Shown here: positions 5,266 through 63,254 of the stretch, in pieces
How positions within the stretch are numbered: position 1 is the stretch's first letter
Layout: each line of letters opens with the position of its first letter
Source of the DNA: PVC group bacterium
GTDB lineage: Bacteria > Omnitrophota > Gorgyraeia > B26-G9
DNA length: 64,000 bases
Direction: 5' to 3'
Assembly (NCBI GenBank): GCA_024231215.1
Contig: JAAEQR010000072.1
Span: forward strand, 65,210 to 129,209
Notes under the pieces: model-generated
What the model was told of the DNA's origin: nothing
Seen by the model: only the letters and a program-made list of their open reading frames with translations
Database searches by the model: none
Program-made: the position numbers and the translations under genes

Positions 5266-5294
5266 GTTAACCAAGTCTAATTTTATGGTTGACA
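5265..5294 (+). promoter_or_regulatory. BirA-operator-like inverted repeat TGTTAACC-N14-GGTTGACA overlapping the bioB promoter/5'UTR
   Basis: Half-sites at 5265-5272 and 5287-5294 (7/8 palindromic). Resembles Firmicute-type BirA bioO half-sites TGTTAACC. Sits between the -10 and the RBS. Confidence 0.4.
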
Positions 5295-5312
5295 ATGGAG
5301 GAGATAAATAAT

Positions 5313-43667: not shown

Positions 43668-43784
43668 TTAAATGTAAATTTTTTAAACTTTATAATAGTT
43701 TATTTAAAAGAATTATTTTGTAATTATATTTGATTTATCATTGGAGATAGATCACTTATTATATTTAATACTTTTTAGTAAACT

Positions 43785-43814
43785 TGACATATTTATTTGT
43801 CCTAAGGTATAATA
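43785..43814 (+). promoter_or_regulatory. consensus sigma70 promoter TTGACA-18nt-TATAAT upstream of fabG
   Basis: Perfect hexamers at 43785-43790 and 43809-43814. Confidence 0.55.
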
Positions 43815-43844
43815 AATATTCAAGTTAAAATAGCATTGTGCAAA

Positions 43845-43870
43845 AATTGTACTGCACAATAATAATTTTA
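43845..43870 (+). promoter_or_regulatory. perfect 8-bp inverted repeat ATTGTGCA-N10-TGCACAAT (putative operator) between promoter and fabG
   Basis: Read directly. Positioned ~+30 relative to the predicted promoter. Resembles TetR-type (FabR/FadR-like) lipid regulators' palindromic operators in architecture. Confidence 0.4.
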
Positions 43871-43893
43871 TTTTCCAACCAAGGTACACGGTA

Positions 43894-44640
43894 GTGGCTA
43901 ATTTAAAAAATAAAACAGTCATAATCACCGGCGGTTCCAGAGGCATTGGCAAAGCTTGTTGTCTGGCGTTTGCACAGGCAGGTGCTAATGTAATTTTTAC
44001 CTTCAGTAAAAGTAAACAGGAAGCAGACTCTTTAGAAAAACAGATAAATGATATAAATGCAAACTGTTTAGCTATTCAATCCGATATAAAAGACTATGAG
44101 CAATGTCGTGAAGTAGTTGTAAAAAGTATAGAAAAGTTCGAAAAGATTGATATCCTAGTTAATAATGCCGGAATTACTAAAGATAAGGCATTAATGATGA
44201 TGTCTGTAGAAGACTGGAAAGATGTTATTGATACTAATCTGGGTGGAGTTTTTAATATGTCCCGTGCTGTAATTACTACCTTTTTAAAACAAAAAGAGGG
44301 GTGTATTCTTAATATGAGTTCGATTAGTGGAATGGTAGGCATGCCCAGACAGACTAACTATAGCGCGTCTAAAGCAGGTATAATTGGATTTTCTAAAGCA
44401 TTGGCTAAAGAGGTGGCACCTTATAATGTGAGAGTTAATACGGTTTGTCCGGGTTTCGTTGGGACGGACATGGTTGATAATTTGCAGGATAGCGTTAAGG
44501 ATAATATTGCAAAATCTATTCCGGTAAAGAGAATTGGAGATGCCGAAGAAATAGCGGATCTCTGTGTGTTTCTGGCATCGGAAAAAGCACGTTATATTAT
44601 CGGTGAGACGATAAAAATAGACGGTGGTTTGGCAATATGA
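43894..44640 (+). CDS. fabG: 3-oxoacyl-[ACP] reductase
   Basis: SDR: TGGSRGIGKA, NNAGIT, catalytic S-Y-x3-K (YSASKAG), PGFVGTDM. Strong similarity to E. coli FabG throughout. Confidence 0.85.
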   Translation: MANLKNKTVIITGGSRGIGKACCLAFAQAGANVIFTFSKSKQEADSLEKQINDINANCLAIQSDIKDYEQCREVVVKSIEKFEKIDILVNNAGITKDKALMMMSVEDWKDVIDTNLGGVFNMSRAVITTFLKQKEGCILNMSSISGMVGMPRQTNYSASKAGIIGFSKALAKEVAPYNVRVNTVCPGFVGTDMVDNLQDSVKDNIAKSIPVKRIGDAEEIADLCVFLASEKARYIIGETIKIDGGLAI

Positions 44641-44656
44641 AAAATAAAAAAGAGAG

Positions 44657-44920
44657 GTGAATATGGCTGAGACAATTAATTTTGAAGAGGTAAAGACAGA
44701 GGTAAGGAAAATTGTCGCGGAAATTATCGAAACTTCCGAGGAAGAATTGAAAGATGACGCAGAATTTGTGGAAGATCTGGGTGTGGATAGCATGATGGCC
44801 CTGGAGATTGTTGCGGTTATCGAGAAGAAGTTTAAGATAACTATTCCGGAAGAAGAAATCCCGAACATTGGTTCTTTACAGAAGATATATGATATTTTAA
44901 AAAAGAGAATGGCTAGTTGA
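44657..44920 (+). CDS. acyl carrier protein
   Basis: 87 aa, acidic. Phosphopantetheine-attachment site LGVDSMMALEI (DSL-type Ser). Confidence 0.8.
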   Translation: MNMAETINFEEVKTEVRKIVAEIIETSEEELKDDAEFVEDLGVDSMMALEIVAVIEKKFKITIPEEEIPNIGSLQKIYDILKKRMAS

Positions 44921-44931
44921 TCTAACTTGAT

Positions 44932-45528
44932 ATGGGATATTGGATAGTCAGAACGATTTTTGTTGTGATCATAAAGGGATTATTTCGTGTTAAAATAGAA
45001 GGAACTGAACATATCCCGAAAGAGAGCAATTATATCATTGTTGCGAATCACGCCAGCTGGCTTGATCCGATGGTTATGGTTGCGGTAATTCCGTATAAAA
45101 TCTATGGCGTTGCGTTACGTTCTTTATTTCGTATAAAGTGGCTGCAAAGAACGTTAAAAGCACTAGAAGCAATTCCGACTGGTAATTCCTCAGGGCAAGC
45201 ACTTTCTTTATTAATGAAAAACAAGACAGTTGGTTTATTTCCGGAAGCAGGATGTAGTCGCGATGGCAAACTGCGCCGATTTAAAAATGGTGCAGCAGTA
45301 TTGGCTTTAAGAAGCGGTCGGCCTGTTGTTCCCTGTGGGATTAGCGGCTCATATGAAGCTATGCCGCGACATTCTCGATTTCCGAAACTCTTTTCTCGGA
45401 TTACTGTAAAAATTGGCAAACCTTTATATTTTCTCAAAGAATTCGATGAGCTTATTGATCCATTTTTACTGGAAGAAAGTACAGATAAGATAAAGACAGC
45501 GATAGAAAGATTGTGTTATGAACGATGA
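44932..45528 (+). CDS. lysophospholipid/1-acylglycerol-3-phosphate acyltransferase family (PlsC-like)
   Basis: HX4D motif VANHASWLDP, FPEAGCSRDG motif III, PVVPCGISG motif IV. Confidence 0.75.
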   Translation: MGYWIVRTIFVVIIKGLFRVKIEGTEHIPKESNYIIVANHASWLDPMVMVAVIPYKIYGVALRSLFRIKWLQRTLKALEAIPTGNSSGQALSLLMKNKTVGLFPEAGCSRDGKLRRFKNGAAVLALRSGRPVVPCGISGSYEAMPRHSRFPKLFSRITVKIGKPLYFLKEFDELIDPFLLEESTDKIKTAIERLCYER

Positions 45529-47086
45529 TTCGCTAATCCAAATACAATTTAGCCGTGTTATTCACGCGAAGAAATGGAAAGTTATTCGTACACTTACCCG
45601 TGTCTGGGAATTACCCCGCCTTGTGCATAGTATCAAAGAAGTAACGGTACTACAAAGAAGCAAGCGTACTCTGAAGACTAAATGGCATATTGAGGTAAAC
45701 AATGTTCCTATTTCCTGGATTGAGGAGGAAACCTTGTGCTTACAAGAGAACCGGATTTGCTTTCGTGCTGTAGAAGGTGATCTAACTAATTTTTCCGGTG
45801 AGTGGAATTTTCAAGATCATCCGGAAGGGACGCAGGTGTCTCTTAGTGCGAAAGTTCGTTTTGATATTCCGGCAATAGGGCAAGTGAGCGGCCCTTTTAT
45901 TCAACAGCTGTTAACCCGAAACTTTGAAGCAATAATGGATGCTTTTGAACGGCGATTGGTTTCTCTTAGATATTCCGGGTATAAGAAAGGAGATACAAGT
46001 CAACTAGCTGGTTTTGGGGTAATTGGCCACTTATATAATTTTAATCATCTAGAAAAATGTTTGAAAATGTTACAGCCTGATTTTGTAATGCCTTCAAAAG
46101 AATTTTTAAGCCAGCTTTTTTATATCACTCCGTCTTTTAAACTATACGATATTCTGAATTTCAAATCAAAAACAGGCCAAAGCGTTAATGGTTGTTTTAT
46201 TGTGGCTACGTTTATCCCTGAAATGATAGACAAAGATATCTGGGCAGTCTATTCGAAAGTTATAAAAGCTTGTAAGGTTGCGGAAAAGCATGGGACGGGT
46301 ATTGTCGCTCTGGGTGGATTTACTTCGATTGTTGGGGAACGTGTTAGTCAGCAGATGAATGATGATGTTGATGTCCCGGTTACTACCGGCAATGCGTTTA
46401 CTGCAGCAATGACTATTGCCGGAATAGAAAAAGCGGTTTGTCGAATGGAAAAGAATTTGAATCAGATGACCTTAACGATTGTGGGAGGGACTGGAGATAT
46501 CGGTAGTGCCTGTGCTCGTGTTTTTGCTAGTCGTGTAAAAAAATTGATTTTAACGGGCCGGACCAAGGGGCATCTGCGTAATCTGCGCAATGAATTAACC
46601 AAAAATGGATCAGCTCGTGTCATAGAGACTACGGACAATCAATCTGCAGTTAAAGAAGCAGATGTTGTTATAGCTGCGGCAAGTGCTTCAGCGTCTATTC
46701 TTGATATTAACTGGTTTAAACCCGGGGCGATTATCTGTGATGTGGGTTATCCTAAAAATGTTTCTTATAGGTTTAACTCCCGGGAGGATATCTTTGTTTT
46801 TTCCGGAGGGCTTACGAAATCCCCGACACAACTTCAATTACCGATCGATGTGGGATTGCCGAGTCCTGAAACTATTTACGGGTGCTTTGCCGAGGCGATT
46901 ATCCTGGCTTTGGAAAAAAGGTATGAACAGTTTAGCTTTGGCCGGGGCAATATCACAGCGGAAAAGATTGAAGAGATTAGGCTGCTAGGGGCAAAACATG
47001 GATTTGAAACAGCTGATTTTTTCTGGGGACACCAGGCAATTGATGAATCAATGATTGAAAGAATTAAAAAAGCGGCGTATGTTTAA
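45518..47086 (+). CDS. SRPBCC (polyketide cyclase/START-like) domain fused to acyl-ACP reductase (cyanobacterial AAR-like, fatty-aldehyde forming)
   Basis: aa 165-522 align motif-for-motif with cyanobacterial acyl-ACP reductase: FGVIGHL, ALGGFTSIVGE, TTGNAFTA, IVGGTGDIGSACARVF (Rossmann), LILTGRT, DVGYPKN, YGCFAEAIILALE, SFGRGNITAEKIEEIRLLGAKHGFE. aa 1-150 form a Bet v1/SRPBCC-like lipid-binding fold region. Confidence 0.75.
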   Translation: MNDDSLIQIQFSRVIHAKKWKVIRTLTRVWELPRLVHSIKEVTVLQRSKRTLKTKWHIEVNNVPISWIEEETLCLQENRICFRAVEGDLTNFSGEWNFQDHPEGTQVSLSAKVRFDIPAIGQVSGPFIQQLLTRNFEAIMDAFERRLVSLRYSGYKKGDTSQLAGFGVIGHLYNFNHLEKCLKMLQPDFVMPSKEFLSQLFYITPSFKLYDILNFKSKTGQSVNGCFIVATFIPEMIDKDIWAVYSKVIKACKVAEKHGTGIVALGGFTSIVGERVSQQMNDDVDVPVTTGNAFTAAMTIAGIEKAVCRMEKNLNQMTLTIVGGTGDIGSACARVFASRVKKLILTGRTKGHLRNLRNELTKNGSARVIETTDNQSAVKEADVVIAAASASASILDINWFKPGAIICDVGYPKNVSYRFNSREDIFVFSGGLTKSPTQLQLPIDVGLPSPETIYGCFAEAIILALEKRYEQFSFGRGNITAEKIEEIRLLGAKHGFETADFFWGHQAIDESMIERIKKAAYV

Positions 47087-49268
47087 TCAATTATTCTCCT
47101 TATCCAATTATTATTTAAATCCGTTTGCAATGCCGGTATTTCTGGTAAGTATAACTATTTTTTTTATTGGATCGGTTGTATTATTCCAGAACAGGCGGTC
47201 GCTTATTAATATATCTTTCTTTTTAAAATGTTTTAGCGCTGGATTTTGGTTATTTACAGCTTCGATTGTGTATTGTTGTTTGAATGAGGCAGTAGCACAT
47301 ACATTGTATAAATATTTTACTTTTCTCGGTGTTGTTAGCATTGGTCCGAGTCTGTACTTTTTCTCCGTATGCTGGTCTAATGTTGCCAAGCGTCAGAAAT
47401 ATATGATCCCGTTGGTATACATAGCTTTTTATGTTCTTTATGGAGTAACTGTAACTACGGATGTATTTATCCTGCCGGGTATGCGGAAATATTTCTGGGG
47501 GTTGTATCCGATTTATGGGCAGGCAATGGGTGTATTCGTGATAATGTTTACGACTACATATTTACTTTCTTTCATGAATACATTTAATGCGTATCACAGG
47601 GAAACAATTCCGATTAAGAAAAGACAAAAAGGAATTATTGCGTTTGTTCTCGCCTTAGGATATCTGGGATCAATTGATTTTATTTCAAAGTTTTTTGATT
47701 ATACGGTTTTTCCTGTCGGATATCTCGCTATTTTTGTCTATATTTCTCTTGTTGCTTATTCAATTGTGCGCTATCGTGCTTTTGATATTGAAACAGTAAT
47801 ACATAAGACAGCTTTATGGGTTTTGTCTTTTTCTTTTGTTGTTATTCCGGTATTTTTTCTTTACGACTGGTTATTGTCGCATATTGAATTGAAGATTATT
47901 AAATTCGCTTTATGGACTGCGACTTTTCTGATTTTTGCTTTATATCTGCGTGTAGTTCAGCCAAAAATAGACCATATATTTCAACGTCGCAGAGCTGATT
48001 TAGAAATTATTTCCAGAATGTTTATCGAAGAACTGGTGCATTTAAAAGGCCTGAATAATCTTTTGCGTTTGATAAAAGATACGATTGCGGATGTTTTGTA
48101 TTCTCAACAGGTAGATATATTTATTTACAATCAGGAGCGAAAGATTTTTGATTTATTTAACCAGATAAGCGAGGCTAAGCAGAGAGCTTTTCTTAAGGAC
48201 GATGACCGGTTTTTAGAATGGCTGACTAAAAACAACAGAATAGCATATAAAGAGTTTATTTATTTAGATCCCCAATACGCGAAAATAAGACAAGCCGCGA
48301 AGAAATATTTTGCGCTTAATGATGCGGTTTTAGTTATTCCTTTAATTGCAGACGGAAAACTGCTTGGGGTGATTAATTTAGGAAAGAAGGCAAACTTAAA
48401 ACGTTACACGGCAATGGAGTTTAATTTTTTGAATACTTTAAAAAACGAATCAGCTATAGCTATTTCTAATTCTCTTTTATATGAGAATATGGAAGATCAA
48501 GTCAGGCAGCGTTCAAAAGAATTGTTGGAAATGCAGAAACAGCTGGTGCAGGCAGAAAAGTTAGCTACTGTCGGTACTTTAGCCGGTGGGGTAGCACATG
48601 AAATAAATAATCCGCTGGCGGCTATATTGACCAATGTGCAAATGCTTTTGCATTCGGCTGAGATTGCCGATCCATCGGATAAGGAGTCGCTTGAACTTAT
48701 TGAAGAGGCGACGCAACGCTGTCGGGTTATTGTGAAGAAACTAATGGTTTATGCCCGGAAGCCATTGCATTCTTCAGAAATCTCCCGGATAAACCTGTCT
48801 GCAGTGGTGAATAATGTTATTTCATTTCTTGAATATCAATTAACTCAGGAGAATATTGCTGTGGTTATTGATATTCAAGACCTTGGATGTGTTATAAAAG
48901 GTAATCAGAATGAACTAGAGCAGGTAGTTACGAATATGATCCTGAACGCAAAAGATGCTATTAAAAAGGTTAAAAGGGGTGGTACAATAGAAATGTCTTT
49001 AGTTACGAAAGGTAGATGGGTTTGCCTTGAGATTAAAGACGAAGGAGAGGGAATACCCCAGGAAATAAAATCAAAGATATTTGATCCATTTTTTACGACT
49101 AAAGATGTCGGGAAAGGGTTAGGGCTTGGGCTTTCTATTTGTCAGTCTATTATCGAACGTCACGATGGGGTGATTACGGTGGATTCAGAGCCGAACAAGG
49201 GGGCGGTTTTCACGATAAATCTGATTAGAGCAGAAGCAACAGATAAAATTACAAAAAATAAATCTTGA
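47055..49268 (+). CDS. sensor histidine kinase with N-terminal multi-TM (7-8 TM) sensor, GAF-like region, HisKA and HATPase_c
   Basis: H-box VAHEINNPLAAIL, N/G boxes (MILNAKDAI; DEGEGIP; GKGLGLGLSI). Paralog of the HK at 53875-56064. Confidence 0.8.
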   Translation: MKELKKRRMFNQLFSLSNYYLNPFAMPVFLVSITIFFIGSVVLFQNRRSLINISFFLKCFSAGFWLFTASIVYCCLNEAVAHTLYKYFTFLGVVSIGPSLYFFSVCWSNVAKRQKYMIPLVYIAFYVLYGVTVTTDVFILPGMRKYFWGLYPIYGQAMGVFVIMFTTTYLLSFMNTFNAYHRETIPIKKRQKGIIAFVLALGYLGSIDFISKFFDYTVFPVGYLAIFVYISLVAYSIVRYRAFDIETVIHKTALWVLSFSFVVIPVFFLYDWLLSHIELKIIKFALWTATFLIFALYLRVVQPKIDHIFQRRRADLEIISRMFIEELVHLKGLNNLLRLIKDTIADVLYSQQVDIFIYNQERKIFDLFNQISEAKQRAFLKDDDRFLEWLTKNNRIAYKEFIYLDPQYAKIRQAAKKYFALNDAVLVIPLIADGKLLGVINLGKKANLKRYTAMEFNFLNTLKNESAIAISNSLLYENMEDQVRQRSKELLEMQKQLVQAEKLATVGTLAGGVAHEINNPLAAILTNVQMLLHSAEIADPSDKESLELIEEATQRCRVIVKKLMVYARKPLHSSEISRINLSAVVNNVISFLEYQLTQENIAVVIDIQDLGCVIKGNQNELEQVVTNMILNAKDAIKKVKRGGTIEMSLVTKGRWVCLEIKDEGEGIPQEIKSKIFDPFFTTKDVGKGLGLGLSICQSIIERHDGVITVDSEPNKGAVFTINLIRAEATDKITKNKS

Positions 49269-49360
49269 GGGTCGATTTGTTCAGCCTGGATATTTCATGA
49301 ATTATTTAGGCTATGGAAAGGAACGGATTTTCACGGGGATGATGTAGGGAGGAACCTAAG

Positions 49361-49747
49361 ATGAAGGGCCGGATTTTAATTATTGATGATGAGGTGATTA
49401 TCACCAAAAGTCTGCAGAAACTTCTCTTAAAACAGAAGTTTGAAGTTATTGTTGCTAATAATGGGACAGAGGCGATGCAGGCAGTACAAAATGAAAAAAT
49501 TGATTTAATTGTCTGTGATGTGATGATTCCGGAAATGGACGGGATTGAGATCATAAAGCTAATAAGAGAATATCTTACCCAACAAGCAAAACCCCTGATC
49601 CCAGAAATATTGATTACCGGTTATGCGGATGAGGAAAAGTATAAGAGTGCGGTAGATTTAAAAGTTGCGGACTACCTGTATAAACCTTTTGATACGAGTG
49701 AATTCCTGGAGGTTATTGAAAAGAATTTAAATGGTGTTAAAAGATAA
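49361..49747 (+). CDS. stand-alone CheY-like response regulator receiver
   Basis: ILIIDDE...DLIVCDVMIPEMDG (phospho-acceptor Asp), conserved T/K positions. RBS GGGAGGAA. Confidence 0.8.
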   Translation: MKGRILIIDDEVIITKSLQKLLLKQKFEVIVANNGTEAMQAVQNEKIDLIVCDVMIPEMDGIEIIKLIREYLTQQAKPLIPEILITGYADEEKYKSAVDLKVADYLYKPFDTSEFLEVIEKNLNGVKR

Positions 49748-49759
49748 GGACAGATTGCA

Positions 49760-50992
49760 ATGGAGAAAAAGCGGGTAGTGATTACAGGAATCGGTGTTAT
49801 TGCGCCAAACGGGATGGGCAAAGATGCGTTTTGGCAGGCATTAAAAAAGGGCAAGTCCGGGATTAAAGAGCCAACGCTTATAGATGTAACTTATTTTAAA
49901 AATAAATTAGCTGGTGAATGCAGTGATTTTGATGCGGAAACATTTTTAGGTAAAAAAGGTTTGCGTAATTTAGACCGGAGTACAAAACTTGTTTGCTCTG
50001 CGGCAAAAATGGCTTTAGAGGATGCTTCTTTTGAAATGACTGATGATAATAGTGACGATGTTGGAGTGGTGACCGCAACGACTTTGTCTATCAGTGCGGA
50101 TATTGCTAAGTTCAGCAAAGAAATAGCAGATGAAGGATTTAAGTTTACTAATCCGGCGTTATTTCCTCCGACAACAATGAATTTCCCTTCCAGTCAGATT
50201 TCTATCAGGAATAAAATAAAAGGGTTTAATACCACGGTGGCCTCAGGATATACTGCAGGCTTAGATGCTCTTAAATACGCGGTAAATTTTATAAGCTTAG
50301 GAAGGACAAAAGCAGTATTGGTAGCCGGGGTAGAAAGCCTCGTCTTTTCTAATTACGTAGGGTTTTCTAAGGTTGGGTTTCTGGCCGGAGCAAAAGGTCC
50401 GGAACTATCCTGTCCTTTTGATAGCCGACATAACGGAATTATTCTTGGGGAAGGGACAGCGGCTTTATTAGTTGAATCTGAAGATAGTGCTTTAGAACGC
50501 AATGCGCGGATTTACGGAGAAGTGTTGGGGGTAAAGACATTTTTTGACGCGTATAAGCCGGCAAAATATGACCCTAAGGTTCGAGGTTTAAAACAGAGTA
50601 TGACTAAGGCTTTGGAGAGTTCTGGTTTGAGTGAAGAAGATATTGATTATATTTGTGCTTCGGCAAATTCTGTGGAAGAACAGGATAAATTAGAGACTCT
50701 AGCTATAAAAAATGTATTTGGTCTTTACGCAGAAAATATCCCCGTGAGTTCTATAAAGTCTATGATTGGAGAAAGCATTAGTGCTAATGGAGTACTGCAG
50801 ATCGCGGCAAGCCTAGGGGCAATCAACGAAAGTTTCATTCCTCCGACGATTAATTATGAGAATCCTGATCCGGAGTGTGATTTAGATTATGTGCCCAATA
50901 CTTTCCGAAAACAAACCGTAAATAATGTGTTAATTAATAATTTCGGTCCGGGAGGCAATAACGCAGCAGCAGTGATTGCTAAATATGATTAA
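49760..50992 (+). CDS. ketosynthase-like protein lacking the Cys-His-His triad (chain-length-factor-like KS partner)
   Basis: Thiolase/KAS fold throughout, but the active-site Cys position reads TTVASGYTAG and the His motifs read CASANS / GESISANG. Confidence 0.7.
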   Translation: MEKKRVVITGIGVIAPNGMGKDAFWQALKKGKSGIKEPTLIDVTYFKNKLAGECSDFDAETFLGKKGLRNLDRSTKLVCSAAKMALEDASFEMTDDNSDDVGVVTATTLSISADIAKFSKEIADEGFKFTNPALFPPTTMNFPSSQISIRNKIKGFNTTVASGYTAGLDALKYAVNFISLGRTKAVLVAGVESLVFSNYVGFSKVGFLAGAKGPELSCPFDSRHNGIILGEGTAALLVESEDSALERNARIYGEVLGVKTFFDAYKPAKYDPKVRGLKQSMTKALESSGLSEEDIDYICASANSVEEQDKLETLAIKNVFGLYAENIPVSSIKSMIGESISANGVLQIAASLGAINESFIPPTINYENPDPECDLDYVPNTFRKQTVNNVLINNFGPGGNNAAAVIAKYD

Positions 50993-51021
50993 TGAGAAAG
51001 GTTATTTGAGAAAGGTTATTA

Positions 51022-52230
51022 ATGAATAAAAAACGCAGGGTGGTTGCAACAGGACTTGGAGTGATATCCTCGGTTGGCATTGGCAAAGACGCGTTTTGGA
51101 AAAGTGTAACCAGCGGGACTTCCGGAATTACGGAAATTACTTCAGTTGACACCACAGAGTTTAACTGCCATTACGGTGGAGAAGTTAAAAAATTTAACCC
51201 TGAAGAATTTATTCCCAAAAGAAAAGTTCCTTTTTTAGGTAAAACTTCGCAATTAGCATTATCTGCGGCATCACTTGCATTAAAAGATGCTGGATTTTCT
51301 GAAAAGAAAGTTCCTTCTCAAAAGTTTGGGGTGATTATCGGGACTACTGTTGGCGAAAGACCTTTAGAAGAATTGGTGCAGGCTTGGGCCAGAGGCGGGT
51401 TAAAAGAGGTAGATCGAGGAAGGGTTTTTCAGGCTTCGGTGAATAATATTTCGGCTAATGTTGGGATTCATTTTAAAGCCATGGGGTTGAATCATGTGTT
51501 TCCGACAGCTTGTGCTGCCGGTAATTATTGTATTGGCTATGGGATGGATTTAATCCAGAGCGGTGATTTGAATTTTGTTCTAGTCGGAGGTGCGGAAGCA
51601 TTTTCACGGGTGGCTTATGTCGGATTCCAAAGGCTTTACGCAATGTCTCCGGATAAATGCCGGCCGTTTGATAAAAACAGAAAAGGGATGCAGTTAGGAG
51701 AAGGCTCGGGTGTTTTGCTTTTAGAATCAATGGAGTCTGCTATAAAACGAAAAGCACATATTTACGCGGAAGTTTTAGGCTACGGTCTTTCCTGTGATGC
51801 TTATCATGCTACAGCTCCGGATACACAAGGTATTGCTAAAGCCATGGGCAAGGCTTTAAAAGATGCGGATACATTACCCGAAGATATAGATTATATTTGC
51901 ACACATGGAACCGGTACTCCGATGAACGACAGAATAGAAACTGCGGCAATAAAAGAAGTGTTCAAAGATAAAAGTAAGGATCTTGTGATTAATTCTCTGA
52001 AATCCATGCTTGGGCATACCATGGGTGCGGCTTCGGCAATTGAAGCAGCGGCGTGTTGTATGGCATTGGAAGATGGGATAATTCCTCCGACAATCAACTA
52101 CGATGAATCCGATCCTGAATGTGATTTAGATTGTGTACCGAACAAAGCAAAAAAGAAGAAAATAAAAGTAGCTTTAAATAACGGGTTTGCCTTTGGCGGC
52201 AATAACTGTAGTGTGGTGTTTGGAAAATGA
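51022..52230 (+). CDS. beta-ketoacyl-[ACP] synthase (FabF/FabB-like), catalytically complete
   Basis: Active Cys in PTACAAGNY (codon at 51511-51513), His motifs CTHGTGTP and SMLGHTMGAAS, C-terminal NxFGFGGxN. Confidence 0.8.
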   Translation: MNKKRRVVATGLGVISSVGIGKDAFWKSVTSGTSGITEITSVDTTEFNCHYGGEVKKFNPEEFIPKRKVPFLGKTSQLALSAASLALKDAGFSEKKVPSQKFGVIIGTTVGERPLEELVQAWARGGLKEVDRGRVFQASVNNISANVGIHFKAMGLNHVFPTACAAGNYCIGYGMDLIQSGDLNFVLVGGAEAFSRVAYVGFQRLYAMSPDKCRPFDKNRKGMQLGEGSGVLLLESMESAIKRKAHIYAEVLGYGLSCDAYHATAPDTQGIAKAMGKALKDADTLPEDIDYICTHGTGTPMNDRIETAAIKEVFKDKSKDLVINSLKSMLGHTMGAASAIEAAACCMALEDGIIPPTINYDESDPECDLDCVPNKAKKKKIKVALNNGFAFGGNNCSVVFGK

Positions 52231-53270
52231 GTGAAATAGATCAGAAAATTAGTAGTTTGTTGAAAAAATACAAAGTTTCTGCAAAAGATAAAAAAGTGAT
52301 TGATTCTTTTGTTAAGCAAGCAATAGAGTATATTGCTTGCTTTCAGCAATTTGAGCAAAAAATAAAAGGCAAGCCCTATAAAAAATCACTCCAAAGAATA
52401 TTTGATAAAGAACAGAACAAATTAATTACCACGTTATATACGGTTGATCGAAAAATTAAATCTTCCGGCGTTAAATTTAAAATGAGGGCATTATTTAGAG
52501 AGATAGGAAAAAAATATATTTTCAAATCAGGAATAGCAAAACGCATTTATGATCGTCCCCAAGGTTATCCTGGGGATTTTTTAACATTCGAAATATTCTA
52601 TGACAACAAACCGATATCTAAAGGCGCAGGAGAATATTTAGATGTCTGGGCATTAAGACACGTGCTATCTTTAGCAGCTACGTATAGGAAAAACAACATG
52701 CAGGAGATATTGAAAAAGATCATTAGTGGAAAACGTAAAAAAATAAAGATATTAAACGTAGGTTGTGGTTCGTCCAGGGAAATTCGTGATTTATTGACCG
52801 AAAATATGAATCTTAGCAAAAAGCTTTCGATTATCTGTTTAGATCAGGATAAAGATGCATTAAATTATTCAAAAAAATGTATTAAAGCCTTGGGGAATGA
52901 TATAGATGTTAAGTTTTTGCAGGAGGATATTTTATCTCTAATTGGGGTAAGCAAGAAACAATTATTAATAGGTCGACAGGATATAATTTATAGTTTAGGG
53001 GTTGCAGATTACTTTTTAAAAACAGCTTTGGGTAATTTTATAAAATTTTGTTATAGTAGATTAAATCCAGGAGGAAAACTTATAATTGCTTTTTGTAGTT
53101 CGCATAATCCTAAATTATATGTTCATTTGCGATGGTTTTGCGAATGGAACTTTTTCATTAATGATGCGAAAAAAATACGTGATTTTATAGTTAAAGATTT
53201 GGGGATTAAGAAAACTAAGATTGTGTGGGAAAAGCCAAAACCTGTTTTTCTCGCATTAATGGAGAAGTAG
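52227..53270 (+). CDS. class I SAM-dependent methyltransferase with ~150-aa N-terminal extension
   Basis: ILNVGCGSSREIRDL (motif I), acidic motif II (LDQD), YSLGVADYF. Start overlaps the KS stop (ATGA). Confidence 0.65.
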   Translation: MSEIDQKISSLLKKYKVSAKDKKVIDSFVKQAIEYIACFQQFEQKIKGKPYKKSLQRIFDKEQNKLITTLYTVDRKIKSSGVKFKMRALFREIGKKYIFKSGIAKRIYDRPQGYPGDFLTFEIFYDNKPISKGAGEYLDVWALRHVLSLAATYRKNNMQEILKKIISGKRKKIKILNVGCGSSREIRDLLTENMNLSKKLSIICLDQDKDALNYSKKCIKALGNDIDVKFLQEDILSLIGVSKKQLLIGRQDIIYSLGVADYFLKTALGNFIKFCYSRLNPGGKLIIAFCSSHNPKLYVHLRWFCEWNFFINDAKKIRDFIVKDLGIKKTKIVWEKPKPVFLALMEK

Positions 53271-53271
53271 T

Positions 53272-53865
53272 ATGGATTTTTTATGTATGATAAAAAATAG
53301 AGCAGTTACAAGGAGATATGAGGATAAATCAGTTCCTGTTGAAATTGTTGAAAAGATTATTGATTCAGGTGTATGGTCTTCATCAATACACGGTTTTCAA
53401 CCATGGAAATTTATGGTTATAAATGGTAAGGATAAAATTAAAAAAATATCAGAGATTGTTTCTGATGTGCCAGTAGATATAGCTGGTGATAGTATGGGGA
53501 AATTGGTGAATTTTTCAGCAAGGGTTATTGCCGATGCGCCTTTATTGATTATGGTGTATAATACAAAAGCATTTACTAATGCTGCTGGTAAATTTTTTAA
53601 AATCAATCGGGAATATATAGAAATAGCACAAATGACAGAAATTGAAGGTATCTCCGGAGCGATTCAAAATATGATAATGATGGCGGAAAGCTTAGGAGTT
53701 GGGAGTTGTTGGTTAACTACTCCTTTGTTTTGCGAAAGCAAAATAAACGATTTTTTAAATATTACAGATAGGTTAGTTGCAGTAATAACATTTGGTTACT
53801 CGATGCAGAAAGAAGTTCGTTCTCCCCGAAAGAATGTTGAGACCAAAGTTAATTACGTGCGATAA
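53272..53865 (+). CDS. nitroreductase-family (FMN-dependent NAD(P)H oxidoreductase) protein
   Basis: RAVTRRYEDKSVP N-terminal motif. ~200 aa. Conserved GxxSCW-like region (GVGSCWLT). Confidence 0.6.
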   Translation: MDFLCMIKNRAVTRRYEDKSVPVEIVEKIIDSGVWSSSIHGFQPWKFMVINGKDKIKKISEIVSDVPVDIAGDSMGKLVNFSARVIADAPLLIMVYNTKAFTNAAGKFFKINREYIEIAQMTEIEGISGAIQNMIMMAESLGVGSCWLTTPLFCESKINDFLNITDRLVAVITFGYSMQKEVRSPRKNVETKVNYVR

Positions 53866-53874
53866 AATTTTATT

Positions 53875-56064
53875 ATGAATTTATTTACAATATCTTCGGT
53901 ATTAATATTTACTTTTACTTTATTAATAGGTATTATTGCTTATTGGAAAGGTACAGATAAGAAAATAACAAAGGTTTGGGCTTTGTTTTGTCTTTCTATA
54001 TCTATTTGGGGGATGGGCGGGTATATATTTTCATCAACAATATCCAAAGATGTAGCTCTTTTAGGATGGAGGATTACTAATATCGGTGTTATCCTTATCC
54101 CTGTGACTTTTTACCATTTTATCTATCTTTTTCTTCGGCTGCACAAGAAATCACATAGAAGAATTTTGATCGGATCATATGTTCTGGGTAGTCTGTTTTT
54201 AGTATTTAATTTTCTGCCACGGCAGTTTTTTGTAGGGGATGTTAGTTGGGTATTTGGTCAGTTTTATTATGGCGATTGGTGGATATGTAAAAGTCCATTA
54301 TATTTATTACTTTACATCCTTTTTTATTGGGTATTACTTTTATATGTATTTACATTGCTTATCACCCAGTATAATCATTTTAGCGGGAATAAAAGAGAGC
54401 AGTTGAAATATTTTATACTGGCTGCTATAGTTGGATGGGTTGGCCCGACTTTAATGTGGCCGATTTGTTTTAGGATATATATATATCCCTATTCAAATTT
54501 TCTCATAGCGTTCTTTCCTTTTATAATTGCTTATGCCATTATAAAACATCGTCTCATGGATATCAAAATTGCACTTACCCGTGGGGCGATATTATTGATT
54601 GTATACGCGTTTATTGTGGGCGTGCCGTTGTTATTTGTTGCTTCCGGGAGGACTTGGCTGACCGGATTATTTAATGATAAATGGTTTTATCCGCCACTGA
54701 TAATGTATACAGTATTGGCATTGCTGGCACCGTATATATATCTTCGTTTGCAGGCAAAGGCTGAGGCAAAAAGAATGCTTGAACAATATCATTTGCATCA
54801 GTCTCTTAAAGCTGCGTCAAAAACTACAATTGAAGTCCAGAGCGTTAAAAAACTATCCAAAATAATTCCTAGATATTTACTTCGTTTATACGGGAGGTTA
54901 AATAATAAAATAACTCACATTAGTTTGTTTCTTATGGATAAAAACAAAAAGATATATCGGTTGAAATCTTCTGTAGGGGATGAGAAACTGCCCAAGGATC
55001 TGAGCATCTCAGAAAACAGTATTTTAGTAGATTGGTTTACAAAAATAAGCCATGAGGTGGTAGAGCAGGGAGTATTAAAAGCCAAAGAAGTGGAAGTCTT
55101 AGTATATGAAGATATAGATTATTGGATGAACGAAGCTAATGTTTTACGTGCGCCATATCGCGGCTTAAAGAAAATCTTGAGAGACTTAAAAAAAACCATG
55201 GAAAGCTTAAACGCGCAGATAATCCTACCTTCTGTATATCAGCAGGAACTGTTAGGATTTTTGATCTTGGGGGAGAAGACTCCTGATTTATATACGAGAA
55301 ATGATATTGATACGTTTTCTATTCTGGCGAATGACAGTGCTATGGCGTTTAAAGCGGCGCGATTGTTTGAAGACTTGAAAATGACTCAAGCCCAGCTTAT
55401 TCAGTCTGAAAAATTAAACCTTTTAGGCCAGTTGGCATCATCCATGGCCCATGAAATTAATAATCCATTAGCGATCATTTCCGGAAATATCCAGCTTTTA
55501 CTTATGGATGTAAAAGACGAAGGGATTCGTGAATTACTTAAGAAAATAGATGAACAGACCGAAAGAGGGTATAAGATAATCCATAGGCTGCTGAATTTTT
55601 CAAAATTGCCGAAAGAAGATATTAAAGATATTGATATGCATGAGACCATAAATGAAACACTGGAATTGGTCAATCATAAAATTATCCATGGCAATATCAT
55701 GCTGGAAAGACACTTTGATGAGGTAAAGATAATAAAAGGCAATCCTATTCAGATACAAGAGGTTTTACTGAATTTGTTTGTTAATGCCATCCAGGCTATG
55801 CCCGAGGGCGGAGATCTAAAGATATATACCAAACAGCTGGATGGTTTTGTCCAGGTTGTGGTTGAGGATAATGGCAAAGGAATAGAAGCGGAAGATGTAG
55901 CTAATATCTTTGATCCTTTCTATACCAAAGGCAAAAAAGACGGAACCGGCCTTGGATTATTTGTCGCCGACCAGATAATGAAGCTTCATAAAGGTAGTAT
56001 TGAACTAAAAAGCAAGTTAGGCGAAGGTACTACATTTACCCTCAAATTCGCGGAGAAATTGTAA
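53875..56064 (+). CDS. sensor histidine kinase, paralog of 47055-49268 (multi-TM sensor + HisKA + HATPase_c)
   Basis: H-box MAHEINNPLAIIS, N box LLNLFVNAIQAM, G boxes DNGKGI / GTGLGL. Confidence 0.8.
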   Translation: MNLFTISSVLIFTFTLLIGIIAYWKGTDKKITKVWALFCLSISIWGMGGYIFSSTISKDVALLGWRITNIGVILIPVTFYHFIYLFLRLHKKSHRRILIGSYVLGSLFLVFNFLPRQFFVGDVSWVFGQFYYGDWWICKSPLYLLLYILFYWVLLLYVFTLLITQYNHFSGNKREQLKYFILAAIVGWVGPTLMWPICFRIYIYPYSNFLIAFFPFIIAYAIIKHRLMDIKIALTRGAILLIVYAFIVGVPLLFVASGRTWLTGLFNDKWFYPPLIMYTVLALLAPYIYLRLQAKAEAKRMLEQYHLHQSLKAASKTTIEVQSVKKLSKIIPRYLLRLYGRLNNKITHISLFLMDKNKKIYRLKSSVGDEKLPKDLSISENSILVDWFTKISHEVVEQGVLKAKEVEVLVYEDIDYWMNEANVLRAPYRGLKKILRDLKKTMESLNAQIILPSVYQQELLGFLILGEKTPDLYTRNDIDTFSILANDSAMAFKAARLFEDLKMTQAQLIQSEKLNLLGQLASSMAHEINNPLAIISGNIQLLLMDVKDEGIRELLKKIDEQTERGYKIIHRLLNFSKLPKEDIKDIDMHETINETLELVNHKIIHGNIMLERHFDEVKIIKGNPIQIQEVLLNLFVNAIQAMPEGGDLKIYTKQLDGFVQVVVEDNGKGIEAEDVANIFDPFYTKGKKDGTGLGLFVADQIMKLHKGSIELKSKLGEGTTFTLKFAEKL

Positions 56065-56172: not shown

Positions 56173-56694
56173 ATGGGTAGAAGAAAGAATGTTCTACTTC
56201 TGAGTATGGTATTTGTACTTTTGTTAACTGTTTGTGCGTTTGCAGTTGATGGTGGGGGGATTCAATGGCGCATGTATTTTTCCGACCTGTTTAAAATCAA
56301 ATTTTATATTCCTGTAAATCTAAACTTAAGCAAAGTTACCAGTTCAGAATGGACCAGGCTGCAGGGGCGCACCAGCTCCGGGATTGAAGTTGAAGCGCAT
56401 TTTGATAATAAAAATCAATATCTGATTTTTATTAAAGAATATGCGGCGGAGACTCTGGGGATTAGCCATAAAGCATTTAGGATGATTAATAAAAGCAAGA
56501 AGAATGCGCTGGAGTATCGTGTCTATCTTGCGGATATGGAACGTAACGGTAAGAACTATAGGGTGGGGGTTATTGTTGCGAAGCATATAGATTATAAAAT
56601 CTCATATATGCTTTATTTATTAATGCCATATGATATGTGGGAAGATCGTCGTGAAGCTTTTACTTTTTGGTATGAAAACATAACTGGCCTTTAA
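56173..56694 (+). CDS. exported hypothetical protein
   Basis: Signal peptide (MGRRKNVLLLSMVFVLLLTVCAFA). No motifs recognised. Confidence 0.4.
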   Translation: MGRRKNVLLLSMVFVLLLTVCAFAVDGGGIQWRMYFSDLFKIKFYIPVNLNLSKVTSSEWTRLQGRTSSGIEVEAHFDNKNQYLIFIKEYAAETLGISHKAFRMINKSKKNALEYRVYLADMERNGKNYRVGVIVAKHIDYKISYMLYLLMPYDMWEDRREAFTFWYENITGL

Positions 56695-56836
56695 AACTAT
56701 TTAATCCTTCCAGTTTATTTTAACTTGCCTTAATTCTTTTTGTTTTATTATATTTTTTTGCTTGTCAAATAAAGTAAATCGTATTAAACTCTTCCTTTGC
56801 GTCTATTGAATTGCGTAAGTATTAACAGGGAGGTTA

Positions 56837-57733
56837 GTGATGGTTAAAAAGGATAATGATTATAATACAATTCTGCAAGAATGGAAAACCCTTCGTGGGG
56901 AAACTCTCCAATCTCAAAAACAAAGACTGAATACTTTCAGGACATCAATAATAATATTAGCGGTTATTTATATTGCGTATTTAATCCCGGGATTGAAGCT
57001 ATATAAACAGCCGTTATTTTTTCAGACATTCATTTTATTGTTTCTTACCCCGATTGTTCGTTTTGTTAGTTCTCTCAGGTTGCGGGATAGTTTTCATGCT
57101 TGCTATATTGAAAATTTCATCAAGATGCAATTACCGCAGGTGCGTTATATTGCCCGGTTCAGTGAATTTAAAAAGAATTTTCGCAATCAAATATCAGCCG
57201 CGGAAAGAATCAGATGTACTTATTTGCAAATAGGCATATCAACTATACCTTTTACAATCGGGTATTCGTTTTTTTTATTTGAGCCGGGGACTCTATGGTA
57301 TGTTCGTTTAGGTGCGTATACTCCTTATCATGACTTGTGGCTGCGGGTTGGTTTTTTCGTAAGCGCATTGATTTATTTTATTTGGACGATTTATGTTTGT
57401 CGTTATGATACGCAGAAAACAACTAAATTTTTTAATGAATTAAGGCAAATTCTGATCAAGGAATTGTTGACCGGAGAGATTGTTCCTTATGGCTTTAACA
57501 CTGGTTCGTTTCAGCATCCGGAAGCTTGGCATTCGCTTTTTGGGAAGGAAAATATTACGCAGAAGAAAGATATTTTATTGTCTCTAAAAAAGCTAGAAGA
57601 TGAATTCGCGGGAGTGAAATTTCTGATTAAATCTTTAAATAAAATGTGGTTTAAAAATCCAGTTAAAGATTTATTGTATTATGATCTAGAGAAAGAAGAG
57701 TATGGAGATAAAACGCGGTTGATATTAAATTGA
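56837..57733 (+). CDS. hypothetical integral membrane protein (4-5 TM)
   Basis: Hydrophobic segments. No motifs recognised. Confidence 0.4.
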   Translation: MMVKKDNDYNTILQEWKTLRGETLQSQKQRLNTFRTSIIILAVIYIAYLIPGLKLYKQPLFFQTFILLFLTPIVRFVSSLRLRDSFHACYIENFIKMQLPQVRYIARFSEFKKNFRNQISAAERIRCTYLQIGISTIPFTIGYSFFLFEPGTLWYVRLGAYTPYHDLWLRVGFFVSALIYFIWTIYVCRYDTQKTTKFFNELRQILIKELLTGEIVPYGFNTGSFQHPEAWHSLFGKENITQKKDILLSLKKLEDEFAGVKFLIKSLNKMWFKNPVKDLLYYDLEKEEYGDKTRLILN

Positions 57734-58912
57734 AGATCCAATAATATCTGTTTGCATCGGTAAATCGTGTCTTAGACTTTCGATGCTGAGAGAATTGGCG
57801 ATTGCTCTAATTGTTATTACGGGAGGAAAAGAGTTAAGCATTAGTAAAAGATGGTTATTAAAATCATTAAAAGAGGGGAAGAAAGGTTCTACTAGCCGGG
57901 GCGACAATTGATGTATAAGTGCAAACTTGTTAGAGTTTGCTATTATTCCTAATCTGACAGTTTCGGGCAGATCTTCTGTAGAAGATACAAATATCGATAA
58001 CAGGTCAATTAAATACGGAGCATATCGCGTTCCTCGATTGCTTATAAGGTCTATAAAAGTCGCGGCAATGCTTTTTTGAGCCTTGTGCAGTGCCATCTGA
58101 TATGGCCGGTAACCAGCCATGGCATCGCCGGAATCAACAATACTTAGTAGTTGAGCTTCGATGGTGGTATTTTCGCCTGTTTTTTTATGAGGGTATCCTG
58201 TCCCGTCAAAAGATTCATGATGTTCTTCCATTATTCGTTTTAGATTTTGGGTGAGTATTGAGTTTGGAAGAGGGAGTTGATAGGGGATTATAACGTGGCC
58301 TTGCATTATGGCGTATTCGTCGTCAGTTAGTGGCCCATCGGTTTTATTTATAATATGACTAGGTATTTCCGCTTTCCCGATATCGTGATAACGAGCTGCA
58401 AGGACTAAAAGTCCTAAATCTACAGCTGGAGGGATAGTAACAGCATTGAATCTTAGTCCATAGTGATAAGCCAGGATCATAACTCTTTTTTTATGATTAA
58501 CCGTCCATTCATCCAGGTTTTTATTATTTATTTCCTCTTTTTCTTTAGCTTCAAAAAAATCTATTAGATAATGTAAATCAGGTTTGGTGGCCTTAATTGA
58601 AGCCATAATTTTGTTTACTTTTAAATCAATATATTCTTGAGAGTTTCTCTCATAAAGAGCGTCTATGTCTTTTCGGATTTTTTGTGCTTGGTAATTTTCA
58701 ATTATTTTTAATCGTTCGGCTCTAGGCAAGTTTCTGTTTCCGGAGCTCTTTTTGAAGACAGATTTAAGCGATTTTTCCGAGATGGTTAAAGGAGCATTGA
58801 TATTATTGCGTGCATGTGGGCATAGTTGTGCGTTTGCAGCAGGAGCGGAAGTTAGCCAAACCGCGAGCAAAAGAATATAGACTGTAGTTTTTAGTAATAT
58901 TGAGTTCTTCAT
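57725..58912 (-). CDS. HD-GYP domain protein with N-terminal signal peptide/anchor and ~180-aa N-domain
   Basis: HD motif (LAARYHDIGKAEIP), GYP motif (HHESFDGTGYPH). N-terminal MKNSILLKTTVYILLLAVWLTSAPAANA. Confidence 0.75.
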   Translation of the reverse strand: MKNSILLKTTVYILLLAVWLTSAPAANAQLCPHARNNINAPLTISEKSLKSVFKKSSGNRNLPRAERLKIIENYQAQKIRKDIDALYERNSQEYIDLKVNKIMASIKATKPDLHYLIDFFEAKEKEEINNKNLDEWTVNHKKRVMILAYHYGLRFNAVTIPPAVDLGLLVLAARYHDIGKAEIPSHIINKTDGPLTDDEYAIMQGHVIIPYQLPLPNSILTQNLKRIMEEHHESFDGTGYPHKKTGENTTIEAQLLSIVDSGDAMAGYRPYQMALHKAQKSIAATFIDLISNRGTRYAPYLIDLLSIFVSSTEDLPETVRLGIIANSNKFALIHQLSPRLVEPFFPSFNDFNNHLLLMLNSFPPVITIRAIANSLSIESLRHDLPMQTDIIGSSI

Positions 58913-60139: not shown

Positions 60140-60157
60140 GGTGTCCGGAGGATTATT

Positions 60158-63240: not shown

Positions 63241-63254
63241 GGGTAATAAGATAG

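Follow-up and report, generated by a model that had tools for sequence, protein, structure and literature searches.

The stretch of DNA considered here (the window) comprises 64,000 nucleotides from a PVC group bacterium of the Omnitrophota (contig JAAEQR010000072.1, positions 65,210 to 129,209 of the forward strand). Between positions 43894 and 56064 of the window lie 11 genes, all on the + strand, that encode enzymes resembling those of fatty acid synthesis (FAS) together with two histidine kinases having multiple transmembrane (TM) segments. Neighboring genes are spaced from -32 (overlap) to +92 bp apart, which implies a single operon. Window proteins were typed by listing open reading frames (ORFs) and by Pfam and NCBIfam scans, with curated cut-offs applied. 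A first-pass annotation, made from the sequence alone, had read these genes as a lipid-type biosynthetic cluster interleaved with two sensor kinases. Its gene names, their order and their strand were correct for all 11 genes, coordinates included.

For comparison, 92 related loci (labeled in the form L091) were collected through a metagenome scan with an alignment of one protein of the operon, the SRPBCC-AAR fusion described below, and through look-ups; 82 of these are distinct for the SRPBCC-AAR gene. They were scored with the window proteins and with Pfam-typed neighbors, and each count given below covers the loci that have enough sequence. The named close homologs are nearly all from Candidatus Omnitrophota; the SRPBCC-AAR protein is identical to MCP4649056.1 and the KS-like protein to MCP4649059.1, both encoded on a 708-kb contig of a metagenome-assembled genome.

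The features of the operon, and of the signaling genes beyond it, are as follows.

43784..43813, + strand: sigma-70-type promoter, TTGACA-N18-TATAAT, matching the consensus at 12/12 positions
43835..43860, no strand assigned: inverted repeat ATTGTGCA-N10-TGCACAAT in the leader, candidate operator
43894..44640, + strand: FabG, 3-oxoacyl-ACP reductase (TIGR01830, 300.8 bits against a cut-off of 297.75; Pfam adh_short_C2, E = 8.5e-67)
44657..44920, + strand: dedicated acyl carrier protein (ACP) of the amxACP type (PP-binding domain, DSM serine motif)
44932..45528, + strand: acyltransferase of the LPLAT/PlsC family (PF01553, E = 1.5e-24; HX4D motif NHASWLD; FPEAG)
45518..47086, + strand: fusion of an SRPBCC (START-like) domain with a thioester reductase resembling acyl-ACP reductase (AAR), typed by Pfam and NCBIfam
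47055..49268, + strand: sensor histidine kinase HK1 (approximately 8-9 TM segments, GAF-like region, HisKA, HATPase)
49361..49747, + strand: CheY-like single-domain response regulator (receiver, REC; PF00072, E = 2.3e-25)
49760..50992, + strand: inactive ketosynthase (KS) partner, an amxFabFmut-type "chain length factor" (CLF), with Cys to Tyr, His to Ser and His to Glu replacements
51022..52230, + strand: active KS of the amxFabF2 type, with the Cys-His-His triad
52227..53270, + strand: class I S-adenosylmethionine (SAM) methyltransferase that has a helical extension at its N terminus and belongs, as a divergent member, to a methyltransferase family recurring in the related loci
53272..53865, + strand: nitroreductase-family flavoprotein (PF00881, E = 2e-26)
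53875..56064, + strand: sensor histidine kinase HK2 (HisKA_7TM, HisKA, HATPase), with 60% identity to the second kinase in the closest relative
57725..58912, - strand: HD-GYP-domain protein without REC (PF13487, PF01966; HHE...GYP motif), of uncertain association
59084..61207, + strand: two tandem REC-HD-GYP proteins (Pfam), downstream of the segment that the first-pass annotation covered

Genes and signals of the operon

The promoter is the sole perfect TTGACA-N18-TATAAT site in the 64 kb, where 0.09 would be expected; shuffling the sequence gave at least one in 8 of 100 trials. The consensus promoter claimed at first pass therefore holds. An identical perfect consensus lies approximately 230 bp 5' of the LPLAT gene in L042 and L059. 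The palindromic operator that had been placed beside it fared less well. The inverted repeat is real, with perfect 8-bp arms (ATTGTGCA and TGCACAAT) around a 10-nt spacer, and is unique in the window. It is, however, modest; the exact palindrome is absent from the 91 related loci, and as RNA its fold is of unremarkable stability (z = -0.48). For these reasons, the operator label is unverified. Rfam gave no matches in the window.

The KS and its partner differ at the catalytic triad. The KS carries Cys164, His295 and His332, while the partner has Tyr, Ser and Glu at the equivalent columns. Among 120 homologs of the CLF-like partner, the Cys column is Y or F in 119-120; the next column is A or S, and the last is E, in all 120. 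One active KS beside a partner without the triad is, of course, what the first-pass annotation had proposed, and the column comparison upholds it.

These two proteins are best understood against Cluster I of the anammox bacteria. In Kuenenia this cluster (KustE3603-3608) encodes amxACP, amxFabZ, amxFabF2, amxFabFmut, a phytoene-dehydrogenase homolog and a B12 radical-SAM protein, and is the proposed ladderane cluster. The anammox proteins amxFabF2 and amxFabFmut form a KS/CLF-like heterodimer that decarboxylates malonyl-ACP and prefers C6-C8 (bioRxiv 10.64898/2026.05.19.726425, May 2026).

In the PDB, the window KS finds its best match in 9s5h_B, which is amxFabF2 (E = 2.4e-135), followed by the polyene-forming Iga11 (6kxd_A, E = 7e-103). 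The best match of the CLF-like protein is 9s5h_C, which is amxFabFmut (E = 3e-107, 362 bits), with the runner-up at 260 bits. Against Brocadia, the KS is 52% identical to amxFabF2 and the CLF-like protein 45% identical to amxFabFmut, in a reciprocal best-match pattern. The cross-pairs reach only 33-36% (36% for the CLF-like protein with amxFabF2). This, in turn, means that the duplication that gave KS and CLF is older than the split of the Omnitrophota and anammox lineages.

A chain length factor of the type II polyketide synthases (PKS) was considered for 49760-50992 and rejected. PKS CLFs have Gln at the active-site Cys position, where this protein has Tyr; further, it scores 164 bits with the actinorhodin CLF (1tqy_B) versus 362 with amxFabFmut. 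Judged by these comparisons, the nearest characterized relatives of the pair are amxFabF2 and amxFabFmut of anammox Cluster I, not the chain length factors of PKS. The first-pass annotation had seen the KS/CLF arrangement of type II PKS and aryl-polyene-like systems, as distinct from housekeeping FAS. A specialized KS/CLF-like pair is present, and a self-sufficient housekeeping FAS is not; what did not survive is the PKS-type CLF. Ladderane clusters were among the comparisons then suggested, and, by PDB matches and Brocadia identities, the ladderane system turned out to be the closest that has been characterized.

The ACP scores under every curated ACP cut-off. Its best PDB matches are the anammox ACPs 7auf and 9s5i_E, and also 7qv0_D, and it is 50% identical to the Cluster I ACP of Brocadia. 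As stated at first pass, no dehydratase, enoyl reductase or thioesterase is encoded in the operon; tblastn finds no FabZ-like or 4HBT sequence anywhere in the window.

The SRPBCC-AAR gene is the most conserved of the locus, with more than 1300 homologs found. Its product aligns with the AAR structure 6jzq (E = 1.5e-40), where YGCFAEA, which holds the catalytic Cys, falls on FACFAEA, and GGTGDIGSA on GATGDIGSA. The catalytic-Cys segment and the NADPH motif are invariant in 20 homologs, and an AlphaFold2 (AF2) model (pLDDT 77) matches AAR with a TM score of 0.85 and 30% identity. Three features of AAR proteins, the catalytic Cys, the Rossmann NADPH motif and the fold, are thus found in it. With 187 bits against TIGR04058 (AAR), for which the equivalog cut-off is 449.7, the protein is a relative within the AAR family, not an equivalog. 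Its N-terminal domain has the START/SRPBCC fold and is nearest to TTHA0849 (25% identity), then to type II PKS aromatase/cyclases (ARO/CYC; ZhuI, TcmN and WhiE are among the structural neighbors, at 14-16% identity). A second SRPBCC fusion, this one with a LuxD-type acyltransferase (PF02273), occurs at 8089-9669 of L012 and has homologs in L009 and L036, a hint that START-like domains serve repeatedly in this locus to handle acyl chains.

The methyltransferase aligns over its full length with 20 methyltransferases of related loci; Y125, D139, R154 and K155, all in its N-terminal part, are invariant. Sequence and profile searches of the PDB retrieve generic class I methyltransferases only, and a single-sequence AF2 model (pLDDT 41) was unusable and set aside. 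A literature search for PF12147 found no mention of it. The two nearest homologs (L009, 15398-16747; L049, 5105-6469) begin with a PilZ domain, in which RxxxR and DxSxxG motifs are present, and by this domain content they link the methyltransferase to cyclic di-GMP (c-di-GMP).

For the nitroreductase, the closest curated families are FbiB and the FbiB C-terminal domain. The latter reduces an activated C=C bond, and this kinship makes an ene-reductase role for the nitroreductase conceivable, if speculative. The gene recurs just 5' of the second kinase, or of a phytoene-desaturase-like (PDH-like) gene, in L087, L089 and L091.

HK1 and HK2 align over their full length with 24% identity (E = 7e-50). 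Each has approximately 8-9 hydrophobic segments in its first 300 or so residues, and neither has a sizeable extracytoplasmic domain. On this alignment, they are distant paralogs of shared architecture, as the first-pass annotation had it. Downstream, the two REC-HD-GYP proteins retain the receiver segment LVFLDIRMP and intact HD, HHE and GYP motifs, and are 72-73% identical to proteins directly 3' of HK2 in the closest relative, L002/L007. They are the probable phosphorylation targets of the kinases and the probable c-di-GMP output. Pfam detects no REC protein with a DNA-binding domain in or next to the locus of the window, and none in the related loci.

A constant core and an exchanged cassette

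Of 41 loci, 40 have a multi-TM kinase of the HisKA_7TM type within 6 kb 3' of the SRPBCC-AAR gene; in 20 of these it is directly adjacent. That first kinase is followed by REC or by a further kinase in 50 of 52. Loci that are complete, in the sense that a second long kinase is present and the variable cassette is bracketed, number 24. Past the last kinase, 12 complete loci show REC in 10 and HD-GYP in 7. On the other side, an LPLAT gene immediately precedes SRPBCC-AAR in 31 of 47 loci, and a stand-alone AAR-like paralog is upstream in 13 of 47. The constant core consists of SRPBCC-AAR, a multi-TM kinase, a CheY-like REC and a second multi-TM kinase; the FAS-like set is not constant.

This reverses the first-pass picture of kinases interleaved into a biosynthetic cluster. 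Across the 82 distinct loci, it is the kinases, REC and SRPBCC-AAR that form the core, and the FAS-like genes that form one of several swappable cassettes. Between SRPBCC-AAR and the first kinase, the variable content is an NAD-dependent epimerase/reductase, a GMC oxidoreductase, a B12 radical-SAM protein or the SRPBCC-LuxD-like acyltransferase. Between REC and the second kinase, 13 of the 24 complete loci have a methyltransferase alone. Cassettes of another type read FabG-CLF-KS-ACP-FabZ, with or without a PDH-like protein, a nitroreductase or a third KS. Others are KS-ACP-KS-ICMT, two thioesterases with ICMT, or a methyltransferase with a FabK-like protein of the NMO type and a GDSL lipase. 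L055 is the sole locus with more than 6.5 kb 3' of SRPBCC-AAR and no kinase; it belongs to a subgroup (L055-L058) that shares an M23 peptidase on the upstream side and, downstream, three other conserved genes.

When look-ups were anchored on the CLF-like protein, five of five fell inside the same kind of locus. One of these loci, L091, reads FabG-ACP-LPLAT-SRPBCC/AAR-HK1-REC-CLF-KS...nitroreductase-PDH-like-HK2, and its CLF-like protein is 70% identical to that of the window. The first-pass annotation had made its case depend on gene order being conserved in relatives; L091 matches the order of the window, and L045 and L050 are similar.

The closest relative, L002/L007, tells more about what is exchanged. 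It shares the upstream flank (an S41 peptidase, gatBAC and a secreted 164-aa protein) and the downstream flank (the two REC-HD-GYP genes, a PNP-family gene and a glycolipid synthase). Its proteins match those of the window at identities of 78% for GatA, 73% for GatB, 64% for SRPBCC-AAR, 59% for HK1, 60% for HK2 and 23% for the methyltransferase. No fabG, ACP gene, CLF-like gene, KS gene or nitroreductase gene is found at its syntenic locus. Since the FAS-like genes are missing in the closest relative, the window holds neither a housekeeping FAS nor a complete ladderane cluster.

The first half of that statement deserves more attention, because FabG, ACP, KS and a PlsC-like LPLAT might well be taken for ordinary fatty acid and phospholipid synthesis. 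FabG passes the curated FabG cut-off, the KS passes that of the KAS II subfamily, and the 64-kb window contains no further FAS gene. However, the operon has no FabH, FabD, FabZ or FabI; of the cycle of ketoreductase (KR), dehydratase and enoyl reductase, with the KS, only FabG and the KS are in the window. The ACP lies under all curated cut-offs, the content of the cassette differs between loci, and at the same site in the closest relative fabG, ACP, KS and the CLF-like gene are all missing. Furthermore, the window encodes BioC, BioF, BioB and BioA, which imply a full FAS II cycle elsewhere. The BioC route requires such a cycle, dehydratase and enoyl reductase included; with bioC in the window, at least these two must be encoded elsewhere in the genome. 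Anammox bacteria likewise keep a canonical FAS beside Cluster I. Thus, we strongly infer that the operon is not housekeeping FAS. As a leading explanation, housekeeping was rejected on comparative evidence, and it retains a small probability.

The biotin genes just mentioned occupy 5289-10858 of the window in the order bioB, bioF, a BioH-like alpha/beta hydrolase gene, bioC and, after a gap, bioA; the bioB, bioF, bioC and bioA matches are above curated cut-offs.

Across 13 complete loci, median pairwise identity is 61% for SRPBCC-AAR, 56% for LPLAT, 48% for REC, 47% for the methyltransferase, 43% for HK1 and 35% for HK2. Within HK1, the sensor region stands at 32% versus 62% for the kinase core. 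The enzymes evolve slowly, and the kinases fast.

Toxin-antitoxin and mobile genes (MNT/HepT, AbiEi/AbiEii, Y1 transposase, AAA_14/DUF4143) appear repeatedly inside the related loci. Such insertions lie at the following positions of these loci.

L012, 3245-3655
L026, 2659-3078
L018, 16292-16972
L036, 20647-21243
L090, 12529-13203
L091, 12616-14688

Insertions of this kind may drive the exchange of cassettes.

The flanks of the operon contribute further observations. The secreted 164-aa protein (43173-43667), between gatC and the operon, belongs to no Pfam family; its counterparts in the same place in L002/L007 and L059 are 44-49% identical to it, and it is also detected in L091. Two hypothetical proteins are encoded in the interval from HK2 to the HD-GYP genes (56173-57733), one of 173 aa with a signal peptide and one of 298 aa with three TM segments; neither has a Pfam match or a counterpart in the related loci. 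After the locus (61268-64000) come a PNP_UDP_1 gene, a glycosyltransferase resembling diglucosyl-diacylglycerol synthase and an LpxL-like acyltransferase. The same neighbors recur in L002 and L087, which places the locus within a conserved lipid neighborhood. Farther upstream, an ORF of 1997 aa (16007-22000, + strand), with an N-terminal hydrophobic segment and one weak Pfam match (PGM_PMM_I), converges on a 781-aa glycosyltransferase of the TreT/GT1 type (22089-24434, - strand).

Comparison with known lipid and signaling systems

Cluster I has been called unique to ladderane-producing bacteria (bioRxiv 10.64898/2026.05.19.726425). The window KS, its inactive partner and the ACP are, nevertheless, orthologs of Cluster I proteins (52%, 45% and 50% against Brocadia), and relatives of the window carry an amxFabZ-like dehydratase (best match 7qv0_A, E = 4.5e-42), as well as PDH-like and B12 radical-SAM proteins that are each 34% identical to those of Brocadia. 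The differences are equally clear. Searches of the window found no FabZ-like sequence and no significant radical-SAM match; no phytoene-dehydrogenase/amine-oxidase homolog is among its Pfam-scanned ORFs, a direct search not having been made. No sampled locus has a radical-SAM gene together with KS/CLF. Conversely, the window adds FabG, LPLAT, SRPBCC-AAR, the methyltransferase, the nitroreductase, two kinases and REC, none of which is within 10 kb of the Brocadia cluster. The Cys position of the partner is Tyr or Phe in the window protein and its homologs, versus Val or Thr in anammox. A complete ladderane cluster is ruled out for the window, with three of six components missing. To our knowledge, Omnitrophota are not known to make ladderanes.

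One might still take the operon to be a cluster for an unusual membrane lipid in its own right (polyunsaturated, ether-linked or ladderane-like), the two-component genes being mere neighbors or general envelope-stress sensors. This would account for the orthology of KS, CLF-like protein and ACP to Cluster I, for the dehydratase, PDH-like and radical-SAM proteins of the relatives, and for the LPLAT, glycolipid synthase and LpxL-like acyltransferase nearby. Further, "ladderane"-type clusters (antiSMASH-type) have been flagged, unexplained, in Omnitrophota metagenome-assembled genomes (PMC9902471). The linkage of the kinases (40 of 41 and 50 of 52 loci) is, however, far too constant for an accident of neighborhood. 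FabZ, PDH-like and radical-SAM genes are missing in the window (the PDH-like gene again not searched for directly), the combination of KS/CLF with radical-SAM is seen in none of the sampled loci, and the Brocadia cluster is without kinases, AAR, LPLAT and FabG within 10 kb. The anammox enzymes, moreover, prefer C6-C8. We regard such a cluster as decidedly unlikely.

A second family of comparisons comes from polyketides. The highly reducing type II PKS of ishigamide (Iga11/Iga12) and the aryl-polyene systems share with the window an active KS with an inactive partner and a discrete ACP and KR. They differ in that the window has no dehydratase, exporter or starter-unit genes, and in that its partner is from the FabF/amx lineage. 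LPLAT and methyltransferase genes also occur in aryl-polyene clusters. Of the remaining aryl-polyene set (the two dehydratases ApeI and ApeP, two ACPs, a thioesterase, a glycosyltransferase and a LolA/MMPL export module), the operon has none.

The operon might instead be a type II PKS or aryl-polyene-like pigment cluster: KS/CLF and KR would build the chain, SRPBCC would act as aromatase/cyclase, and release would be reductive. Iga11, itself polyene-forming, is the second-best solved relative of the KS; ZhuI, TcmN and WhiE ARO/CYC are among the structural neighbors of the SRPBCC domain; the FabZ of the relatives matches ApeP/ApeI-like families; and LPLAT and methyltransferase accompany the pair, as they do in aryl-polyene clusters. 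But the SRPBCC domain is only 14-16% identical to ARO/CYC proteins, against 25% to TTHA0849, and some loci have the SRPBCC-AAR gene but no KS at all. Nor does the CLF-like protein belong to the PKS type. No dehydratase is found in the window, and the operon has no CoA ligase, ammonia lyase, glycosyltransferase or LolA/MMPL exporter. A pigment cluster is therefore highly improbable.

The cyanobacterial AAR (TIGR04058) and the N-terminal domain of PigE have the same fold as the reductase of the window, with the catalytic Cys and the NADPH motif kept. The window protein differs in being fused to SRPBCC, and Pfam finds no aldehyde-deformylating oxygenase among the operon genes.

On the side of signaling, the Rpf/DSF (diffusible signal factor; RpfC and the HD-GYP protein RpfG), Phc and Cqs/Lqs systems likewise co-encode fatty-acid-derived chemistry with multi-TM kinases that have no large periplasmic domains. 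The Phc components are the methyltransferase PhcB, PhcS, and PhcR/PhcQ (PMC8578825). Also shared are REC-only and REC-HD-GYP partners and a methyltransferase within the operon. The combination of a multi-TM kinase with REC-HD-GYP, a feature of Rpf/DSF, is found in the window. A crotonase of the RpfF type is not; Pfam detects no enoyl-CoA hydratase domain in any operon gene. By analogy, then, the resemblance to these systems is one of architecture only. DesK/DesR offers another parallel, in that intramembrane-sensing kinases are linked to lipid-modifying enzymes. There, however, DesR binds DNA, and the window has no such regulator; it has two kinases and a predicted c-di-GMP output.

Direction of signaling and meaning

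What, then, flows from what? The first-pass annotation proposed signal-controlled production of a specialized membrane lipid or lipid-derived signal. In that direction of control, the two kinases would respond to a signal from outside or from the envelope, and would turn on a specialized membrane lipid made by the same operon. Kinases and enzymes are, of course, co-encoded; the strong promoter adjoins an inverted repeat that might be a regulated site; and a small HTH_17 protein is encoded upstream in 26 of 47 related loci. Against this direction, the locus and its immediate surroundings are without a DNA-binding response regulator; REC stands alone or is fused to HD-GYP. The kinases are themselves located inside the operon whose expression they would have to govern, the inverted repeat shows no conservation, and the HTH_17 protein lacks a REC domain and does not occur in the window. 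Signal-controlled production, insofar as it implies transcriptional control, fits poorly with outputs that consist of a CheY-like REC and REC-HD-GYP proteins. We consider it unlikely that the signal acts in this direction.

The opposite direction appears better supported by the gene content: the kinases would sense the lipid, or a membrane state that the lipid creates. With no DNA-binding response regulator, with the kinases inside the operon, and with PilZ-methyltransferase fusions in relatives, the lipid is more likely the input of the kinases than their output. The operon would then be a lineage variant of one conserved in Omnitrophota, in which a specialized acyl-chain pathway is coupled to its own intramembrane two-component/c-di-GMP circuit. 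We judge the chances of this reading to be about even. Within it, the lipid is probably the kinase input, rather than a product that the kinases switch on transcriptionally.

How might such a pathway run? By what has been shown for anammox, the heterodimer of the KS and its triad-less partner would prime synthesis through malonyl-ACP decarboxylation and extend the chain on the amxACP-like ACP. FabG would reduce the beta-keto group. With dehydratase and enoyl reductase both absent from the operon, the chain would either stay short or 3-hydroxylated, or else housekeeping FabZ and FabI would be borrowed; the nitroreductase might, speculatively, serve as an ene-reductase. Using its conserved Cys and NADPH site, SRPBCC-AAR would then release the chain reductively to give an aldehyde, with the START-like domain holding the hydrophobic product. 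LPLAT would presumably transfer an acyl group to a lipid acceptor, and the methyltransferase would methylate the product. HK1 and HK2 would sense the product, or the membrane state arising from it, within the bilayer, and would pass phosphate to the CheY-like REC and to the pair of REC-HD-GYP proteins, changing c-di-GMP. Where relatives have a methyltransferase fused to PilZ, c-di-GMP could act back on it.

Several points weigh against an operon that makes and senses its own lipid. Co-location of kinases and enzymes does not show the direction in which information flows, and the upstream HTH_17 protein of the relatives could provide transcriptional control. Conservation of SRPBCC-AAR would equally suit a core metabolic function, and the adjoining glycolipid-synthase and LpxL-like genes, which also lie beside the loci of relatives, would equally suit an ordinary membrane-lipid role. 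The methyltransferase family is weakly CheR-like (E = 0.005 and 0.003), and the enzyme could thus be part of the signaling machinery instead of a lipid-tailoring enzyme. Finally, HK2 is heterogeneous, and in many relatives the second kinase has no HisKA match. In L003, L005, L087, L088 and L089 it consists of 7TM, GAF and HATPase regions without one; the type with HisKA is found in the window and L002. The kinase core has a median identity of 34% for HK2 versus 62% for HK1. Together, these observations make the second kinase a heterogeneous class.

A broader hypothesis would make the locus a self-contained circuit, typical of Omnitrophota, in which a lipid signal is both produced and perceived, be it for quorum sensing, host sensing or lipid homeostasis. 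Here, a core of reductase and acyltransferase together with an exchanged cassette would yield lineage-specific ligands; these would be read by fast-evolving kinases and passed on to c-di-GMP, with feedback through PilZ. We offer this tentatively, as possible and yet doubtful. If it is correct, the KS/CLF-ACP-FabZ toolkit would be a module of general use in the PVC group, yielding short or unsaturated acyl chains, rather than one specific to ladderanes.

Searches of the literature on Omnitrophota kinases and fatty acids, on HisKA_7TM, and on acyl-ACP reductase together with ether lipids turned up nothing that describes the locus. We found no earlier description of the link of SRPBCC-AAR with a multi-TM kinase, REC and HD-GYP, or of the cassette structure; an amx-type FAS-like cluster is placed here in a new phylum, and within a signaling operon. 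Orthologs of four of the six Cluster I genes (ACP, FabZ, KS and CLF-like) are common in another PVC phylum, and distant homologs of the other two are present. That they are common in Omnitrophota is an argument for a more general product of the toolkit, namely an acyl precursor that is short or unsaturated. The Omnitrophota enzymes are, accordingly, new and possibly more tractable material for hypotheses about ladderanes. Genome mining that labels such loci "ladderane" would miss the signaling core, which is the part that is conserved. For the uncultured Omnitrophota, the locus provides a testable link between lipid chemistry, two orphan HisKA_7TM-type kinases and c-di-GMP. A layout that recurs across the phylum with swappable enzyme sets suggests a specialized lipid that is both made and sensed by the cell.

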